From the NCBI GenBank assembly GCA_963674755.2, contig CAXXVS010000002.1, forward strand, positions 1,568,001 through 1,632,000: a DNA stretch of 64,000 nt, given 5' to 3'. The notes below the pieces were generated by a model that saw only the letters and a program-made list of their open reading frames with translations, was not told where the DNA came from and made no database searches. The position numbers were made by a program, and so were the translations under genes. Source of the stretch: Desulfobacterales bacterium. Its GTDB lineage: Bacteria; Desulfobacterota; Desulfobacteria; Desulfobacterales; UBA5852. Of this stretch, positions 2-8,534 are shown piece by piece (the stretch's first letter is position 1; each line of letters opens with the position of its first letter).

Positions 2-583
2 CTTGCTTCTTCAGAAATGGTTCTCTGTGATATTTCGTCTCTAAATTCAAATGTTTTTTTCGAGCTTGGTGTCCGAACGGCCCTTAATAAGCCCGTCTGT
101 CTTGTTAAAGATGATGTCACAACTAATATTCCTTTCGACACCATACCAATTCAATATGAAACATATAGAAGTGCTCTGACAGTTATGCATCACGAAAATG
201 ACCTTAAAAGAATCTCTGATCATTTAATAAGAACTCAAGATAAGAACTCAAATTACAACGCAATGTGGAAGGCGTTCGGGATTTCACAGACCGCATCTCC
301 GCCAGAACCAAGCTCGATTGAGGAAAAACTTGACTTCTTAATTCAACGATCAGATCCTAATTTTGCATTATCTCTCACATGGCTTCGGGAGTTTTCTCCC
401 AAAGTTGCGACGGTTTTGATAAATGCAGACCTTTATTCACTACGTGAAGTTGCCAACATATCCGAAGAAATGTTTAAAAAGGTAAACGGTATTGGCAACA
501 TAGAAATCAGTGAGATAAAGCAAGTTCTTGCTAATCATGGACTATCACTAAAATGCCATAAGGCAATGAGGGTCATGTCTTAA
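2..583 (+). CDS. 5'-partial: nucleoside 2-deoxyribosyltransferase/TIR-like domain fused to a C-terminal RNA polymerase alpha-CTD-like domain
   Basis: Frame open from the window edge. Motif LCDISSLNSNVFFELGVRTALNKP. C-terminal GIGNIEISEIKQVLANHGLSL resembles RpoA CTD ([20 protein letters not shown]). AT-rich. Confidence 0.75.
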   Translation, partial: LASSEMVLCDISSLNSNVFFELGVRTALNKPVCLVKDDVTTNIPFDTIPIQYETYRSALTVMHHENDLKRISDHLIRTQDKNSNYNAMWKAFGISQTASPPEPSSIEEKLDFLIQRSDPNFALSLTWLREFSPKVATVLINADLYSLREVANISEEMFKKVNGIGNIEISEIKQVLANHGLSLKCHKAMRVMS

Positions 584-671
584 CACTTAACAAACCAATA
601 GTTTTCACAGCTAATTTGTCAAATTTTGAGTTCTAAACCCGGATTCTTTATAATTTATTTTTAATGAGACA

Positions 672-1670
672 ATGAGTACTATACATAACGGAAAAGACAA
701 ATTAACCTTTAGGCGCTTGTTGCTATCTAAAGAATTTTATTTACACGGACTGGAGCATTCACGGTTAAAATCACCTCTTAACAGGATGATTGCTATTCAT
801 AATTTTCATAATTCCCTTGAAATTGTTTTGAGATCAATATTCTTATATCACGAAATACGTCCGGAAAAGCAGCTAAATATCGACTTTGAATCTATGTTAA
901 ATGCGATTGATTCTTTTCAATCATTCAAAGAGAATAATGTCAAGCTCCCATACCGACAAGAATTAAGGAGTTTGAATCAAATACGAAATATGGTTCAACA
1001 TCAAGCAGTTGAGCCGGAAGAATCTACTCTTGATGATTGGAGAGTTTTTACTATTAGATTTTTAAGAGAAGCCTTCGATACTTACTTTAGTATCAATTTT
1101 GACGAAGTAACATCAATCCATTTTATACACAATAAAGATTTAAAGAACCTCTTATTAACTGGTAATAAACTTAATAATATAAATAAATATCTCGACTCGG
1201 TAGTTGCTGCTAAATTGGCTTTTATCTACGCATCTTATGCAATCAGTAATTTTTTACCATCTGATGGACTTAATTCTGATTTTTTTGTAATTTCTAGTAT
1301 CTCCTCTATTACGCGTAATATTGATACGATACTTTCACATAAAATAGAAAATGTAATACGTAAAATCTATGATAAAATTGGTGATACCAAACTTTATTCA
1401 TCAATAATATCAAGTGGTGTATCTTTAGCCGACTATAAGCAATATGAGATGCTTACACCATCTATCATCTTAACCTTAGATGGTGGTTACGTTGTACAAA
1501 CAATGAATATGCCAAATCCTGATTTCGAGTCTTCCTCATGGATTTTAAATTTCGTAGAACAATCAATAATTAAATGGCAACTCTCTGGTATCGATCTTAA
1601 TTTAAATGAACGATTAGCATACTCATGCAAAAAATCTAATGAAAATCTTTCTGCTAATATCCCTGTATAA
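672..1670 (+). CDS. hypothetical protein with N-terminal HEPN-like domain (putative RNase effector)
   Basis: 332 aa, very AT-rich; helical N-terminus with NSLE and an Rx4H motif (RNMVQH). Confidence 0.55.
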   Translation: MSTIHNGKDKLTFRRLLLSKEFYLHGLEHSRLKSPLNRMIAIHNFHNSLEIVLRSIFLYHEIRPEKQLNIDFESMLNAIDSFQSFKENNVKLPYRQELRSLNQIRNMVQHQAVEPEESTLDDWRVFTIRFLREAFDTYFSINFDEVTSIHFIHNKDLKNLLLTGNKLNNINKYLDSVVAAKLAFIYASYAISNFLPSDGLNSDFFVISSISSITRNIDTILSHKIENVIRKIYDKIGDTKLYSSIISSGVSLADYKQYEMLTPSIILTLDGGYVVQTMNMPNPDFESSSWILNFVEQSIIKWQLSGIDLNLNERLAYSCKKSNENLSANIPV

Positions 1671-1680
1671 TGCGGAATAC

Positions 1681-1730
1681 TATTGGGGTCGCATCTTAAT
1701 TATTTACTATTGACATCTATCCTATATCAG
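1681..1730 (+). repeat. GGGGTCGCATCTTAATTAT family repeat, L-type copy 1
   Basis: 1681-1712 is identical to 4424-4455, and 46 of 50 nt match out to 1730/4473. Contains TTGACA at 1710-1715. Confidence 0.95.
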
Positions 1731-1838
1731 CTCGCAATAACTATCTAATCCAGTAGATGAAAACCGATTTAGCACACCGGAAAAGAGTCACTTATGCAAC
1801 AAAACAACAGCGCATGTGGCGCCTTGTAGAGGGACCCC

Positions 1839-2465: not shown

Positions 2466-4442
2466 TTGGAAGAACAAAAATCAAAGCTGGAGAAAGTTGG
2501 TGATGCCTTTCTGGACCGTGAGACGTTTTTCCGCACTCTAATCGAGACCATACCGGACCTTGTTTGGTTGAAAGATCCAGATGGTGTTTTCCTTGCGTGC
2601 AATCGAAGATTTGAACGCTTTTATGGTGCAAAGGAAAAGGATATTTTCGGAAAAACGGACTATGATTTTGTGAGCAAGGAGCAAGCTGACTTTTTCCGTA
2701 AAAATGACTTGGATGCCATCACAAACGGAAAGCCAACGGTAAACGAAGAAGCCGTCACCTACATCAGTGACGGCCATGAGGAATTGCTCGAAACCATTAA
2801 AACACCAATGTACGATTCCCTAGGCAACCTAATTGGCGTGTTGGGTATTGCCCGGGATATAACGGAACGCAAGCGCATCGAAAGAGATCTTCGATTGAGC
2901 GAGGAGCGTCTAAGATTAACGCTGGAGGTCGCCAATATCGGAATCTGGGATTGGGACATTGCCAATGATACGTGGCACGCTTCCCCGATATATTACACCA
3001 TGCTCGGCTATGAACCCGTTTCCGGTCCCTCGGATAGGGAAATATGGCTAAAGCGGGTTCACCCTGAAGACAGGGAAGCCGTTCGAGCAAAAATAAGCAG
3101 TATTCTCAATTTTGAAACCAACGAATATCACTACGAGGCACGCATGAAGCACGCCGACGGCACCTACCGCTGGCATTATGTCATCGGATATGTGCTTGAA
3201 AGGGATAAGGATAACAGGCCGATTCATTTAATCGGGCTTCGGATTGACATCAACGACCGTATCAAAGCGCAAGCCGACAAAGAAAGGCTCCAGACCCAGT
3301 TGACACAGGCCCAGAAAATGGAAGCCATCGGCCGGCTGGCCGGCGGTGTTGCCCATGACTTCAATAACATGTTGGGCGTAATTCTGGGGCAGACAGAGTT
3401 GCAGCTGGATCAAATTGATCCAGCCCAGCCAGTCTTCACAGCCCTGCAGGACATCAGAAAAGCCGCAGAGAAATCAGCCAATCTGACTCGGCAACTGCTG
3501 GCTTTTGCTCGTAAGCAAGCCATTTCCCCAAAGGTGCTTAACTTGAATGACGTGGTTGAGAGCATGATCAAGATGTTGCACCGAATCATTGGCGAGGATA
3601 TCCATCTTGTCTGGTCTCCAGGGAAAACCACGTGGCCGGTCAAGATCGACTCCAGCCAAATTGATCAGATTTTAGCCAACCTATGCGTAAATGCCCGGGA
3701 CAGTATCTCGGGTGTCGGAAAAATCGTCATCGAAACAAGAAACCGCACTTTCGACACGGATTACTGTAACCGGCATCCGGAATTTATACCCGGAGACTAT
3801 GTGATGATGGCCATTAGCGATAGCGGTTGCGGCATGGATCAGGAAATTCTCAATAACATCTTCGAGCCTTTTTTTACGACGAAGGGAGAAGAGAAAGGGA
3901 CCGGCTTAGGTCTTGCCACGGTATATGGCATCATCAAACAAAACAATGGATTTATCAATGTATACAGCGAGCCGCAGCACGGATCGACATTCAAGATTTA
4001 TTTACCACGGCACAGGGACAAGGCCGATGAGCCTGTAAAAACAATTGAGGCATCACCGATAGCGCGCGGTTCCGAGACTGTTCTTGTGGTGGAGGACAAT
4101 GCTCAGCTTCTAACCCTAACCCAGTCAATTTTGGAAAGACAGGGATATACCGTGTTGACTGCAACCTCGCCTGCCGGGGCCTTGCGGTTGGTGGATGAGT
4201 TTGCCGGCCCCATCGATTTGCTTATTACCGATGTGATAATGCCGGAGATGAATGGTCGTGATCTGGCAAAAAAGATAAGATCGCAGCGTTCTGGCGTAAA
4301 ACTGCTCTATATGTCTGGTTACACGGCAGATGCCATTTCTATTAATGGCGTGGTAGACAAGGGCGTCAATTTCATTCAGAAGCCCTTTTCAATAGGGGAA
4401 CTGGCTCGTAAAGTAAGGGATAGTATTGGGGTCGCATCTTAA
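2466..4442 (+). CDS. PAS/PAC hybrid sensor histidine kinase-response regulator
   Basis: Two PAS/PAC domains, H-box GVAHDFNN, FEPFFTTK and GTGLGLA boxes, receiver LLITDVIMP. The stop codon lies inside the repeat. Confidence 0.93.
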   Translation: MEEQKSKLEKVGDAFLDRETFFRTLIETIPDLVWLKDPDGVFLACNRRFERFYGAKEKDIFGKTDYDFVSKEQADFFRKNDLDAITNGKPTVNEEAVTYISDGHEELLETIKTPMYDSLGNLIGVLGIARDITERKRIERDLRLSEERLRLTLEVANIGIWDWDIANDTWHASPIYYTMLGYEPVSGPSDREIWLKRVHPEDREAVRAKISSILNFETNEYHYEARMKHADGTYRWHYVIGYVLERDKDNRPIHLIGLRIDINDRIKAQADKERLQTQLTQAQKMEAIGRLAGGVAHDFNNMLGVILGQTELQLDQIDPAQPVFTALQDIRKAAEKSANLTRQLLAFARKQAISPKVLNLNDVVESMIKMLHRIIGEDIHLVWSPGKTTWPVKIDSSQIDQILANLCVNARDSISGVGKIVIETRNRTFDTDYCNRHPEFIPGDYVMMAISDSGCGMDQEILNNIFEPFFTTKGEEKGTGLGLATVYGIIKQNNGFINVYSEPQHGSTFKIYLPRHRDKADEPVKTIEASPIARGSETVLVVEDNAQLLTLTQSILERQGYTVLTATSPAGALRLVDEFAGPIDLLITDVIMPEMNGRDLAKKIRSQRSGVKLLYMSGYTADAISINGVVDKGVNFIQKPFSIGELARKVRDSIGVAS

Positions 4443-4551
4443 TTATTTACTATTGTAATCTGCCCTATATCAGTTCTCTATACCGACCGACGATTCCGAA
4501 ATAGCGTGAGGCAACTATAACATCGTATAATTAATAATTAAGATGCGACCC
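4429..4551. mobile_element. 123-bp MITE/REPIN-like unit with 19-bp perfect terminal inverted repeats
   Basis: GGGTCGCATCTTAATTATT (4429-4447) and AATAATTAAGATGCGACCC (4533-4551). Confidence 0.7.
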
Positions 4552-5056: not shown

Positions 5057-5845
5057 TCAGTTAAGGGTTTCGGTTAATGCAGCCGGTGTAGCCGGCGCGG
5101 TGTTAAATTCGTTCTTTGACAAAGTGTGCTTTCTGAGCCGGTAGCTGTGGCCCTTGATGTTGACCACCCGACAGTGGTGGAGCAGCCGGTCGAGAATCGC
5201 GGTGGCGATGACCTGATCGCCGAACAGCTCCTGCCAGTCCCCGAAGCTCTTGTTGGAGGTGATGATGGTGGAGCTTCGTTCGTAGCGGTAGCTGATGAAC
5301 TGGAAGAACAGGTAGGCTTCCTTGCTGTCGATGGGCAGATAGCCCACCTCATCGACCACCACCAGACTGGAGGTCAGATAGGCCTTGTGCCGGGACTGGG
5401 ACTGCTCCTTAAGTTTTCGCATCAGGGCGTCCATGGTCATGAAATAGACCTTGAAGCCGTGATGACAGGCCTTGGTGGCCAATGCGATCGCCAGATGGGT
5501 TTTGCCCACCCCCGGAGGCCCCAGGAAGATCACGTTCTCGTGCTTGGGGATGAAGTCCAGATCGAAGAGCGCCATGACGTCTTTCTTATTGAGATCCGGG
5601 TGGAACGAGAAGTCGTAGGCATCGATGGTTTTGGCCGCCGGAAGGCCCGCGGTCTTCATGGCGGTCTCCACCCGCCGCTTTTCCTTGGCGCCGACTTCCT
5701 CCTCCAGCAGGTGATCCAGGAAAGCCATATATGAGCTCTTGTCGGTTTCGGCCTGCAAAAGGACAGTGTCGAGCACGGCGGCAGCCTGGGTGAGCTTTAG
5801 CCGCTGAAGATTGTCCCGAAGGCGGTCTGTAATCAGTTGGTCCAT
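5057..5845 (-). CDS. istB: IS21 helper ATPase
   Basis: Walker A GPPGVGKT, VVDEVGY, ITSNKSFGDW, AILDRLLHH. Confidence 0.96.
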   Translation of the reverse strand: MDQLITDRLRDNLQRLKLTQAAAVLDTVLLQAETDKSSYMAFLDHLLEEEVGAKEKRRVETAMKTAGLPAAKTIDAYDFSFHPDLNKKDVMALFDLDFIPKHENVIFLGPPGVGKTHLAIALATKACHHGFKVYFMTMDALMRKLKEQSQSRHKAYLTSSLVVVDEVGYLPIDSKEAYLFFQFISYRYERSSTIITSNKSFGDWQELFGDQVIATAILDRLLHHCRVVNIKGHSYRLRKHTLSKNEFNTAPATPAALTETLN

Positions 5846-7110
5846 ACCCCACCTCCTTTCTGGGCCGCCTGTTCGTAGACGGACAGCGGCCTGTAGAGCA
5901 CTTGGGGAAACAGGCTGCCGTTGACCAGACCCCGCGTGGCCTTGCCCTTGCGGCGGCCGTAGGGTGGTGTCTTCGGCGGCTGTTCGCGGCGCAGCTTGAG
6001 GATCTCCTCGATGATGGCCGGATCGGTGATCATCCGCCCCTTCTCCGGGCTCTCGGTGTGGGTGATCAGCAGCCGGTCGTCGTCGTAAATGCGGATGACG
6101 CCGTCCTTGATCCTCAGCAGCACTTTTTTGCCGACCGCTTCCGGCGGCACCTGGTAACGGCTGGCGTCGTAGGAGATCAGGCAGTCTTTGTAGACCTTCC
6201 GGTAGACCTTGATGGCGGTGTCGTAGTCTCTGGGCACCGGGCCAAGGCTGCGGACCTCCTGCTGCCAGCGCATGTCGACGAGCTGCCGGTGAGTACGGTG
6301 CTGGCGCCGGTTGGCGGTCTCCGAGATCCAGTGGAGCAGATCCGCATTGGCCTGGTCGATGCTCTCAAACACATAGCCGCGCCAGAAAGCTTCCCGGATG
6401 TAGTCGATGGGGCGTTCCACCTTGCCTTTGGTCCAGGGGCTATAGGGGGCGCACAGCACCGGCTTGAAGCCGCAGTGGTCGGCAAAATCGGTGAACTCGA
6501 CATTGATGCGCGCTCGCCCATCGGCGCGGCCGGCGAACACATGGCGCATGTTGTCATAGAGCAGTTCGAAAGGCACGCCCCCGAGATACTTGAAGGCCCG
6601 CAAGTGGGCGTCCATAAACGCCGCCAGAGTGCAGCGGGTGACGAACTCGGCGTACATGGCCCGGGAAAATCCGAGAACCAGCAGGAACAGATGCACGGTG
6701 ATGTCGGCGACACCGGCAGCGGCGATCTTAAAGTCGGCCCAGTCCACCTGGCCTTGCAGACCGGGAACCGTCTCGAATCGCAGGAAGGCCTGACGACGAT
6801 TGCGGGCTTTGACGGCCCGCACATAGGTTTTGACCGTGTCGTAGCCGCCGGAATAGCCGAGGTCTTTGATTTTCTGAAAGATCCATGTACCGCGGTAATT
6901 GTCCTGCTGGAGCCAGTCGTCGATCATCTGGTGGTAGGGGGAAAGGATCGATTCCTTGCGCTTGCGTTTACAGTATCGGGGCATGGTGGGATCTGCCAGG
7001 TACTTGGTGACGGTGTTGCGGTGAATGCCAAGCTTCCTGGCAATGGCGCGCATCGTGAAGCCTTGGCGGTGATAGGAATGAATGTCCATGAATGCCTCCC
7101 TGGTGATCAT
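5833..7110 (-). CDS. istA: IS21 DDE transposase
   Basis: N-terminal HTH, RFETVPGLQGQVDW, YDNM, TKGKVER. Confidence 0.96.
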   Translation of the reverse strand: MITREAFMDIHSYHRQGFTMRAIARKLGIHRNTVTKYLADPTMPRYCKRKRKESILSPYHQMIDDWLQQDNYRGTWIFQKIKDLGYSGGYDTVKTYVRAVKARNRRQAFLRFETVPGLQGQVDWADFKIAAAGVADITVHLFLLVLGFSRAMYAEFVTRCTLAAFMDAHLRAFKYLGGVPFELLYDNMRHVFAGRADGRARINVEFTDFADHCGFKPVLCAPYSPWTKGKVERPIDYIREAFWRGYVFESIDQANADLLHWISETANRRQHRTHRQLVDMRWQQEVRSLGPVPRDYDTAIKVYRKVYKDCLISYDASRYQVPPEAVGKKVLLRIKDGVIRIYDDDRLLITHTESPEKGRMITDPAIIEEILKLRREQPPKTPPYGRRKGKATRGLVNGSLFPQVLYRPLSVYEQAAQKGGGVWTN

Positions 7111-7379
7111 GGCGGCGCCCTCCTTTAGCAGAGGGTCTTACCACCAATTACACCACCGGGGTGGTACACTTTTCATTCCCATTTTTGGTACACTTTAGCA
7201 TTCCCGCCGACAACGCTGTCGCTCATAGCGCTGCACCGTCGATTTCAAAAACGTTGCGGCCTTGGCCTGAACCAAAGTCTGCAACAGCCGGATGGACACG
7301 AGATAAGGACGACCAACGTTTGGGACTTCGTATGGTCAGATACGAAGCGGATTTTTTTAACACCAGAGGGAGGATAATC

Positions 7380-8534
7380 ATGAGCAAAACTTTGATTTTC
7401 TGCGCTGACGGTACTTGGAACGGACCCGACCAGGATGACGACAACGATGGGGCCCCGGACTTCACCAACGTCTACAAGTTGTTTCTTGGCCTGGAGGGCG
7501 AGCTGAGCCCGGAGACGATTTGTAGTGCCGATGAACAGGAGAAATTTCTGAAGAAAGGGACCCCGTTGGTCCAGGTGGCGAAATACATCCATGGTGTTGG
7601 CGATTCCCGCAACCCCATCCGCAAACTTCTGGGTGGCGCTTTCGGCGCCGGAACCATTGCCCGAATTGTGCGGAGCTACACCTTCTTTTCCCGTCATTAC
7701 ACACCCGGGGATGCCATCGTACTGACCGGTTTCAGTCGAGGGGCATATACGGCACGGGCTTTGGCGGGGCTGATCGCCAGCGAAGGGCTGCTCGCCAAAG
7801 CACGAACCAGGGATAAGGAAGCCGCCTACCGCTGGGGCGCCAAGGCCTGGTATCGATATCGCAGCAAAGCCAGGGGCGCCAAAAAGCCGCGCTTTCTGAA
7901 ACGCTTTGCTGAGGCTATGGCGGACCTGCCGGCATTTGTTTCGGCCGATGATCTGAAGGACAGGGATCTGGTTCCCGTGCAAACCATCAAAGCCGTGGCG
8001 GTGTGGGACACGGTGGGTGCCCTCGGACTGCCCACCTATGAAAACGATGCCCGGGTGGATGCTTTCCGGTTTGCCGACAATCGTTTGAGCAGCAAGGTGG
8101 AATGGGGGTTTCATGCACTCTCTCTTGACGAGCAGCGGGTGGATTTCCTCCCTACGGTGTGGGCAAACCGGAGAAACGTGGTGCAGGTGCTGTTCCCGGG
8201 AGCACACGCCGATGTAGGAGGCGGCTATACCACCGGAGACGGTGAAAGCGGTCTGTCCAACGGGGCCCTGCTGTGGATGGTGGATCAGTTGAAAGGCGTT
8301 GAGGTGCAAACTGCGGATAGCATTGCCGCTTCAAACAAGGCCGACGCCGGGGGTGTCGCCCACCAGCCCTGGCGGCATAAGCCGTTTGATTTGCCAGGTA
8401 AAGCCCACCCCCGGAATTTTGCCGGTATGGCCGTTAAGGAACACACCTCCATTGCCCAGCGTATGGCCTTGCCAAGCGTCGTGGCGGAACCGGGAGATCC
8501 TCCCGGCAAGTACAGGCCGACGAACCGGCCCTGA
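7380..8534 (+). CDS. DUF2235 / Tle1-like alpha/beta hydrolase (putative phospholipase)
   Basis: CADGTWN, GFSRGA nucleophile elbow, VWDTVGALG, FPGAHADVGGG; RBS GGAGG before ATG 7380. Confidence 0.9.
   Translation: MSKTLIFCADGTWNGPDQDDDNDGAPDFTNVYKLFLGLEGELSPETICSADEQEKFLKKGTPLVQVAKYIHGVGDSRNPIRKLLGGAFGAGTIARIVRSYTFFSRHYTPGDAIVLTGFSRGAYTARALAGLIASEGLLAKARTRDKEAAYRWGAKAWYRYRSKARGAKKPRFLKRFAEAMADLPAFVSADDLKDRDLVPVQTIKAVAVWDTVGALGLPTYENDARVDAFRFADNRLSSKVEWGFHALSLDEQRVDFLPTVWANRRNVVQVLFPGAHADVGGGYTTGDGESGLSNGALLWMVDQLKGVEVQTADSIAASNKADAGGVAHQPWRHKPFDLPGKAHPRNFAGMAVKEHTSIAQRMALPSVVAEPGDPPGKYRPTNRP

Follow-up and report, generated by a model that had tools for sequence, protein, structure and literature searches.

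NDT- and TIR-type domains are used in defence, as in the NDT effector of retron Ec86/Eco1 and in Thoeris ThsB, and Shedu is said to combine a common effector core with diverse sensor domains. In prokaryotic Schlafens, as far as the portion of PMC13056530 drawn on here describes them, a conserved enzyme core is joined to exchanged, faster-evolving sensor domains, and DrHyd domains act as NADase effectors in the cited part of PMC9503650. The design closest to that of the gene presented here is Swarozyc, a DUF4062 TIR-like NADase: in the cited part of its preprint (10.64898/2026.05.01.722283), a TIR-like core is followed by a helical stalk and a C-terminal HTH-fold domain that binds the phage portal, and defence requires both the Glu and the tail. 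A domain resembling the RpoA C-terminal domain (alpha-CTD) has been recruited into PglW of type 2 BREX, where the relevant passages of PMC12839542 read it as nucleic-acid binding. Integrated decoys, i.e. immune-type proteins into which a host domain targeted by pathogens has been copied, are exemplified by plant RRS1-WRKY and hypothesised for bNACHT11 (PMC11702601); for bacteria, the idea is a hypothesis only in the sections of PMC11702601 and PMC12409349 used here.

The window, meaning the whole stretch of 64,000 nt that was analysed, is the forward strand of contig CAXXVS010000002.1 (positions 1,568,001-1,632,000) from the Desulfobacterales bacterium assembly GCA_963674755.2. Its first gene is truncated by the window edge, and an earlier note on this DNA, which had worked from the 3′ part, called for recovery of the 5′ end; in its own genome the complete ORF encodes 256 aa. 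The features are as follows.

2..583, + strand: 3′ part of the focal gene, 193 codons plus stop, covering residues 64-256; its start codon is found 188 nt before window position 1 (L001:14813)
2..247, + strand: second half of the NDT/TIR-like Rossmannoid domain (residues 64-145 of 1-145)
29-31, + strand: invariant D73
62-64, + strand: invariant E84 (the predicted dimer helix is residues 77-91)
248..352, + strand: conserved connector and helical stalk (residues 146-180; W152 invariant), the joint between core and variable tail
353..559, + strand: tail derived from the RpoA alpha-CTD (residues 181-249)
401-403, + strand: K197, equivalent to E. coli R265
410-412, + strand: T200, equivalent to N268
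494-496, + strand: G228, equivalent to G296
500-502, + strand: I230, equivalent to K298
503-505, + strand: E231, equivalent to S299
560..649, unstranded: degenerate copy of a ~92-nt imperfect palindrome, overlapping the final codons of the focal gene
672..1670, + strand: next gene of the AT-rich island (332 aa, GC 0.31), without a Pfam or PADLOC family
1674..1739, + strand: copy of a second type of repeat (GGGTCGCATCTTAAT core), which follows AT-rich genes at several sites of the genome

The final nine codons (window 548-583) are unlike the LSLGMK end of the homologues and enter the palindrome. A sequencing artefact at this 3′ end was rejected, as short-read contigs of runs X1 and X2, possibly from the source sample itself, are identical to the assembly over the focal gene, with no other letters and no gaps.

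The protein resembles Swarozyc, to the extent that the preprint excerpt describes it, in being encoded by a single gene, in combining a TIR/NDT-related core and one putative catalytic Glu with a stalk and a C-terminal auxiliary domain, and in its horizontal spread near defence genes. It differs, on the same partial description, in that its tail derives from alpha-CTD whereas the Swarozyc tail is an HTH/winged portal binder, and in that its predicted dimer forms via helix 77-91 rather than via an alphaA/alphaB interface. PF13271 (DUF4062) gave no match in the focal protein up to E 1, and the same model matches a neighbouring gene in locus L037. The gene probably encodes an anti-phage effector that acts without partners and travels on an integron-type cassette. 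Our best reading, by analogy, is that it would work like Swarozyc without belonging to DUF4062, and we tentatively favour an effector whose tail senses a protein as the trigger, at a little short of an even chance.

The NDT/TIR-type domain is also shared with retron Ec86/Eco1 and Thoeris ThsB, and the PADLOC TIR effector model PDLC00733 matches the focal protein (E 3.9e-6). Membership in either system was rejected, given that no reverse transcriptase or ThsA-type gene was found among the scanned island genes and that the family has no conserved partner; a reverse transcriptase adjoins the gene in one of 49 family loci, and it is Drt8. Schlafens and Shedu share the plan of a conserved core with exchanged tails and differ in their enzyme, the sensor role of the tails being putative in the present family. 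The overall design of core plus sensor tail is already known. A literature search with thin coverage of subscription journals found no description of this fusion or family, which are undescribed in the literature searched; bioRxiv supplements (the architectures in Swarozyc Figure S1, integron tables) may list related proteins.

The NDT/TIR-like core

PF05014 matched the N-terminal domain with E 8.5e-6 and 26.3 bits, below its cut-off of 28.8. An AF2 model of the protein from a deep alignment (mean pLDDT 88.7) returned NDT, MilB, DNPH1 and TIR folds for this domain (Foldseek E 1.6e-5), the best structural match being MilB (VIA Z 13.2, rmsd 3.4, 137 aligned). Both features of the NDT fold, a flavodoxin-like fold and a catalytic-type Glu after strand 3, are present, and E84, D73, N78, N80, H25, R88, D109, Y118 and W152 are invariant in all 150 aligned relatives. 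The earlier note had proposed an NDT/TIR-like domain with its typical Glu, with Foldseek as the check, and the assignment holds.

The column of the helix-2 Asp of DNPH1 and NDTs, which we take to be catalytic, holds Ile60 in the focal protein and Ile in 145 of 150 relatives, so that the site resembles those of Glu-only TIR-like enzymes; the missing Asp counts against the protein-sensing effector favoured here. With the N-glycosidases NDT, DNPH1 and MilB (PF05014), the protein shares its fold, the position of the Glu nucleophile and a dimer via the catalytic helix, and it differs from them in scoring below the Pfam cut-off, in the Ile at the DNPH1 Asp position, in its extra stalk and tail and in being accessory and mobile. 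The dimer was predicted by a two-copy model (helix 77-91; score 0.54 versus 0.00 for the best control), at a mark that 20/30 solved pairs and 1/23 single chains attained; the runs share at least 50% of contacts with pLDDT of at least 73, and the prediction may reflect memory of solved NDT dimers.

Exchanged tails and the alpha-CTD fusion

The first 180 residues of the protein match 557 clusters at E<=1e-30, and the tails behind this core are exchanged: 281 tails of at least 25 aa fall into 205 clusters (288 proteins, including a few duplicates), and some members have very short tails or none. Of 239 tails, 17 can be assigned by Pfam (alpha-CTD 5, Fis 5, XRE 3, LuxR 2, sigma-70 region 4 1 and Mrr 1), scattered weak matches such as CowN being ignored. 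The commonest unnamed type is alpha-beta-beta-alpha-beta by eye, with weak KH_TffA and DnaA_N-like matches (E 0.004) and otherwise matches to designed proteins only. The tails at L026:6622-6891 and L018:2586-2885 and that of P0104 are weakly like DnaA-N-like or KH domains, the L026 tail returning no fold match; such tails may have been copied from replication or transcription factors of the host. In the ESM Atlas all matches were under 0.8, with none for a typical tail, and a tail-only search returned three known fusions among 19 candidates. Two distant NDT/TIR-like genes also lie in the same genome (L058:2273-3391, encoding P0243, and L055:4706-5623), with the palindromic repeat treated below behind each.

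The search for further examples of the architecture that the earlier note had proposed yielded five homologues (60-81% identity) with the same NDT-alpha-CTD fusion. The fusions form one clade (support 99) in a quick tree of 93 cores, in which the 70 unlabelled rows are a random subset. At L073:1501-1932 (G019), a core of this clade ends at 143 aa and reads into an unrelated small gene.

The tail alone falls below the PF03118 cut-off (E 0.016, 15.3 bits; cut-off 23.8), which two of the five fusion homologues exceed. A profile of the six fusions, however, matches the E. coli alpha-CTD without gaps over 261-317 (E 2.6e-7), RpoA accounts for 22 of the 25 PDB sequence matches of the tail, and its five top structural matches are all alpha-CTDs (best Z 8.3); a separate structure comparison gave Z 9.1 and rmsd 1.9 over 61 aligned residues. 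A shallow-alignment AF2 model was used for the tail alone; in the deep-alignment model, pLDDT exceeds 90 over residues 191-250. The homology proposed in the earlier note therefore stands, on the profile and the folds rather than on PF03118. Its alignment to the whole RpoA CTD is too generous, since the acidic D258/D259 patch ahead of E261 is not preserved and the match covers residues 261-316.

The residues equivalent to R265, N268, K298 and S299 had been read as K, T, I and E, which is exact at the numbering offset of +68 from tail to E. coli RpoA. The DNA-binding determinant of alpha-CTD, which we take to be R265, N268, C269, G296, K298 and S299, is represented in the focal tail by G296 alone. 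In the RpoA of relatives these six residues and N294 are each present in 20/20, whereas the six fusions keep R265 in 1/6, N268 in 1/6, C269 in 0/6, N294 in 0/6, G296 in 5/6, K298 in 4/6 and S299 in 0/6, which bears out the proposed erosion of the DNA face. At these DNA-face positions similarity is retained in 29%, versus 72% at 31 other invariant positions; summed over seven DNA-face positions chosen by hand, the net charge amounts to +4 in 20/20 RpoA versus 0 to +2 in the fusions. The tail is ~40% identical to RpoA and diverges faster than the core (48% versus 76% identity among the six fusions). R265 is described as a DNA-binding residue of alpha-CTD in the parts of PMC1874639 and PMC2988021 cited here, and the loss of DNA-face residues makes it very likely, from the residues present, that promoter-type DNA binding by the tail is gone.

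Recruitment of alpha-CTD is not confined to this clade. Matches outside RpoA in 120 related genomes comprise two PglW-like proteins, an IS110 transposase, a sigma region 4 protein and a DUF4145 (HEPN) protein; the domain has thus entered defence-type proteins recurrently. The DUF4145 (HEPN)-alpha-CTD proteins form a second fusion family of 21 members (P0244-P0264; gene at L186:3291-3938 in G481), in which R265 is kept in 18/21, K or R stands at 298 in 18/21, G296 is mostly kept and N268 is not. A tyrosine recombinase and a transposase are encoded close to the L186 gene, no attC was found at that locus, and the fusion was not found in 401 sampled genomes. PglW is comparable in that an RpoA-CTD-like domain has entered a defence protein and differs in that, as far as PMC12839542 is used here, the domain is internal to a 1400-aa protein and keeps its DNA face, whereas the focal domain is the sole tail and has lost most DNA-face residues; one PglW alpha-CTD-like copy found here keeps R, N, G and K. 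Loss of the DNA face is the distinguishing mark of the NDT fusion among these recruitments. Behind an AAA_21 ATPase/DUF4276 pair we also noted a 381-aa protein (L191:2498-3643, G455) that combines alpha-CTD-like repeats with a sigma-70 region 4. C-terminal alpha-CTD-like domains were likewise noted in the IS110 transposase (L187:2160-3629, G455) and in an ORC-CDC6-like ATPase (L190:2-1438, G424).

A defence effector with a DNA-sensing tail is an unlikely but serious alternative, in which the alpha-CTD would have relaxed to a sequence-independent helix-hairpin-helix binder and clustering on phage or damaged DNA would activate the enzyme. Every one of the 17 Pfam-named tails has a DNA-binding or nuclease fold, a point in favour of sensing DNA rather than protein, and P0243, the distant paralogue, has a weak winged-helix match at its C-terminal end. 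In the fusions N294 has become the Gly of a typical helix-hairpin-helix loop (GIG), G296 is kept in five of six and K298 in four of six, all again counting against protein sensing, and position 268 has gained Lys or Arg in four of six; non-specific DNA binding may thus persist. The PglW domains read as nucleic-acid binding in the cited passages of PMC12839542 point the same way. Against this, S299 is Glu or Asp in 6/6 fusions, R265 is lost in 5/6 and the focal protein lacks K298 as well, whereas the HEPN-alpha-CTD family retains R265; an HTH-fold tail can also bind protein rather than DNA, as in Swarozyc according to the excerpt cited (10.64898/2026.05.01.722283).

We likewise hold it improbable that the protein is a constitutive or product-gated nucleotide hydrolase like MilB or DNPH1, destroying modified phage nucleotides (e.g. 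hydroxymethylated dNMPs) or cleaning the pool, with the tail as a dispensable passenger or oligomerisation aid. The best folds are MilB, NDTs and DNPH1 rather than TIRs, the dimer is predicted via the catalytic helix, and the extreme variability of the tails, some of them very short or absent, would suit a passenger, as would the weaker constraint on the tail (omega 0.53 versus 0.25 for the core in the best unsaturated pair). Yet the protein lacks the DNPH1 Asp, the stalk is conserved throughout the family, the tail is predicted to be folded, and its omega is below 1 wherever estimable; with most pairs saturated, these estimates gave no demonstration of positive selection on the tail.

Cassette context and defence-gene neighbours

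The setting of the gene is a mobile one: attC-like sites adjoin the gene in all six metagenome loci of the alpha-CTD clade (four of them from one assembly), on both sides in L076 and on the available side in L077-L081, which identifies it as an integron-type cassette. Most of these sites trained our attC model (R1, of 6 base pairs only), the upstream site of L081 lying outside the training set (E 1.9e-6). FRG and DUF6602 domains are among the neighbouring cassettes, and the partial ORF L076:17-616, without a Pfam match, looks by eye like the start of an integron integrase. Chromosomal integron cassettes often encode anti-phage systems, as stated in the portion of 10.1101/2024.07.02.601686 drawn on here.

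The focal copy lies in a run of AT-rich, co-oriented genes (GC 0.32-0.40 versus ~0.6 upstream) separated by five copies of the ~92-nt imperfect palindrome. Model R1 found no site beside it and none in the 64,000-nt window, and one attC (E 1.6e-5) 4.4 kb upstream in the same island. The immediate borders carry the palindromes rather than attC, and we therefore read the island as a probable decayed cassette array. An integron integrase above the TIGR02249 cut-off is encoded ~770 kb from the window (G000:C2:2339256-2340191; L177); attC-like sites and a cassette for an AAA ATPase adjoin it. At many places in the genome, AT-rich accessory genes are immediately followed by palindromic repeats of two related types.

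Window 560-649, 1674-1739, 4429-4551 and 8883; L001:9646-16739: palindromic repeats
L055, L056, L057, L058 and L065: palindromic repeats at other loci

A similar palindrome immediately precedes an attC at L081:1015-1127 and 3307-3419, and eight longer matches to Y1 (IS200-like, RAYT-like) transposases occur in the genome; the palindromes may be small elements that target cassette junctions. Elsewhere in the window (5057-7110 and 7161-8534), an IS21-type pair recognised by eye is inserted before a gene for a Tle1-like phospholipase domain (PF09994, E 5e-64).

Distribution is patchy. In 43 of 45 family loci the GC content of the gene is below that of its flanks (four of the 49 were dropped for want of an intact ORF call or for short flanks). 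A search of 16 further genomes from the host's family did not find the focal gene, and three of 400 other genomes of the phylum matched, in the core only. Distant relatives occur in 151 viral stretches as temperate-phage cargo, for example opposite to gene direction in Staphylococcus phage SA13 and just behind a Klebsiella prophage integrase.

Neighbours were surveyed at the 49 loci that represent the wider family in genomes; of 400 neighbours called, the 243 that stand no more than three genes away were scanned. Directly adjacent genes matched PADLOC in 11/90 cases versus 7/150 random host-genome genes (p 0.042), or in 8/90 versus 2/150 (p 0.007) after housekeeping cross-matches were removed by eye; the control is one genome, the filter was set after the matches had been seen and the loci cannot count as independent. 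At a distance of two or three genes there was no enrichment (12/153 raw, p 0.34). The enrichment near defence genes that the earlier note proposed to test is thus present next to the gene, and the association signal is modest. Adjacent matches include Drt8, Mrr, a CAP12-type TIR, a SIR2-like gene, PDC-S21 and PDC-S31. An Abi_alpha gene three genes upstream of the focal gene is in keeping with an anti-phage effector, whereas the many family members that stand alone between housekeeping genes count against it. The Abi_alpha gene (PADLOC PDC-S47) and a following 383-aa gene of no known family occupy L001:11218-13094, and a short MtlR/HEPN-like ORF with an early stop codon lies at L001:10401-10730. 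The 332-aa gene behind the focal gene is not a conserved partner.

Least likely of all is a non-defence nucleotide-binding regulator in which the NDT fold would be input and the tail output, so that HTH tails would bind promoters and the alpha-CTD copy would titrate host activators or sigma region 4: a ligand domain with an HTH is a standard one-component layout, the Mrr nuclease tail of one relative reads as output and the protein-contact residues E261, E286, G315 and K317 are largely retained in the fusions, but the catalytic-type Glu is invariant (150/150), no conserved partner or target operon was found in the 49 loci, the distribution is patchy and cassette-borne and D258/D259 are not kept.

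Proposed function and the bait question

For the anti-phage effector with a protein-sensing tail that we favour, the following mechanism can be proposed. The N-terminal domain would be an N-glycosidase of the NDT/TIR (DrHyd) group that dimerises via its catalytic helix, and the enzyme would be held off until the tail engages an infection-specific ligand. The stalk would couple the core to the swappable C-terminal sensor; Glu84 would then cleave NAD+ or a (modified) nucleotide, stalling the infected cell. The putative sensor of this clade, copied from RpoA with its promoter-DNA face lost, would most likely bind a protein made during infection. That trigger might be a protein that normally grabs host alpha-CTD, making the tail a true decoy, or an unrelated phage protein for which the alpha-CTD is a reused scaffold.

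Within this protein-sensing reading, we give the true RNAP decoy only a minor share. The earlier note had proposed the tail as bait for phage proteins that hijack RNA polymerase, citing T4 Alt and ModA. According to the part of PMC2988021 cited, these modify Arg265 of alpha-CTD; bait for them is unsupported, as this acceptor is Arg in one of six fusions and Lys in the focal protein, and we rejected it. Bait for other alpha-CTD-binding phage proteins is conceivable and rather doubtful. With ~40% identity to RpoA and faster divergence than the core, the tail has drifted further than would be needed of a faithful mimic. The focal protein is comparable to integrated decoys in being an immune-type protein with a copy of a pathogen-targeted host domain, and differs in having lost the acceptor Arg. 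On a broader decoy reading, which seems to us improbable, the whole family would consist of integrated decoys from the host transcription machinery, and the present alpha-CTD, its DNA binding lost, would switch the enzyme on upon capture of an RNAP inhibitor or activator from a phage. It is equally speculative that alpha-CTD, sigma region 4, Fis/LuxR-type activator domains and perhaps the KH-like and DnaA-N-like domains were all swapped in as such copies, alpha-CTD also onto HEPN.

One conserved core with hundreds of natural tails makes sensor specificity directly testable by tail swaps. If the alpha-CTD tail is bait, the fusion would be a clear bacterial case of a plant-type integrated decoy, and escape mutants would reveal which phage proteins attack RNA polymerase. 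If it is not, the family would still be an undescribed, cassette-borne candidate defence family related to Swarozyc in design.
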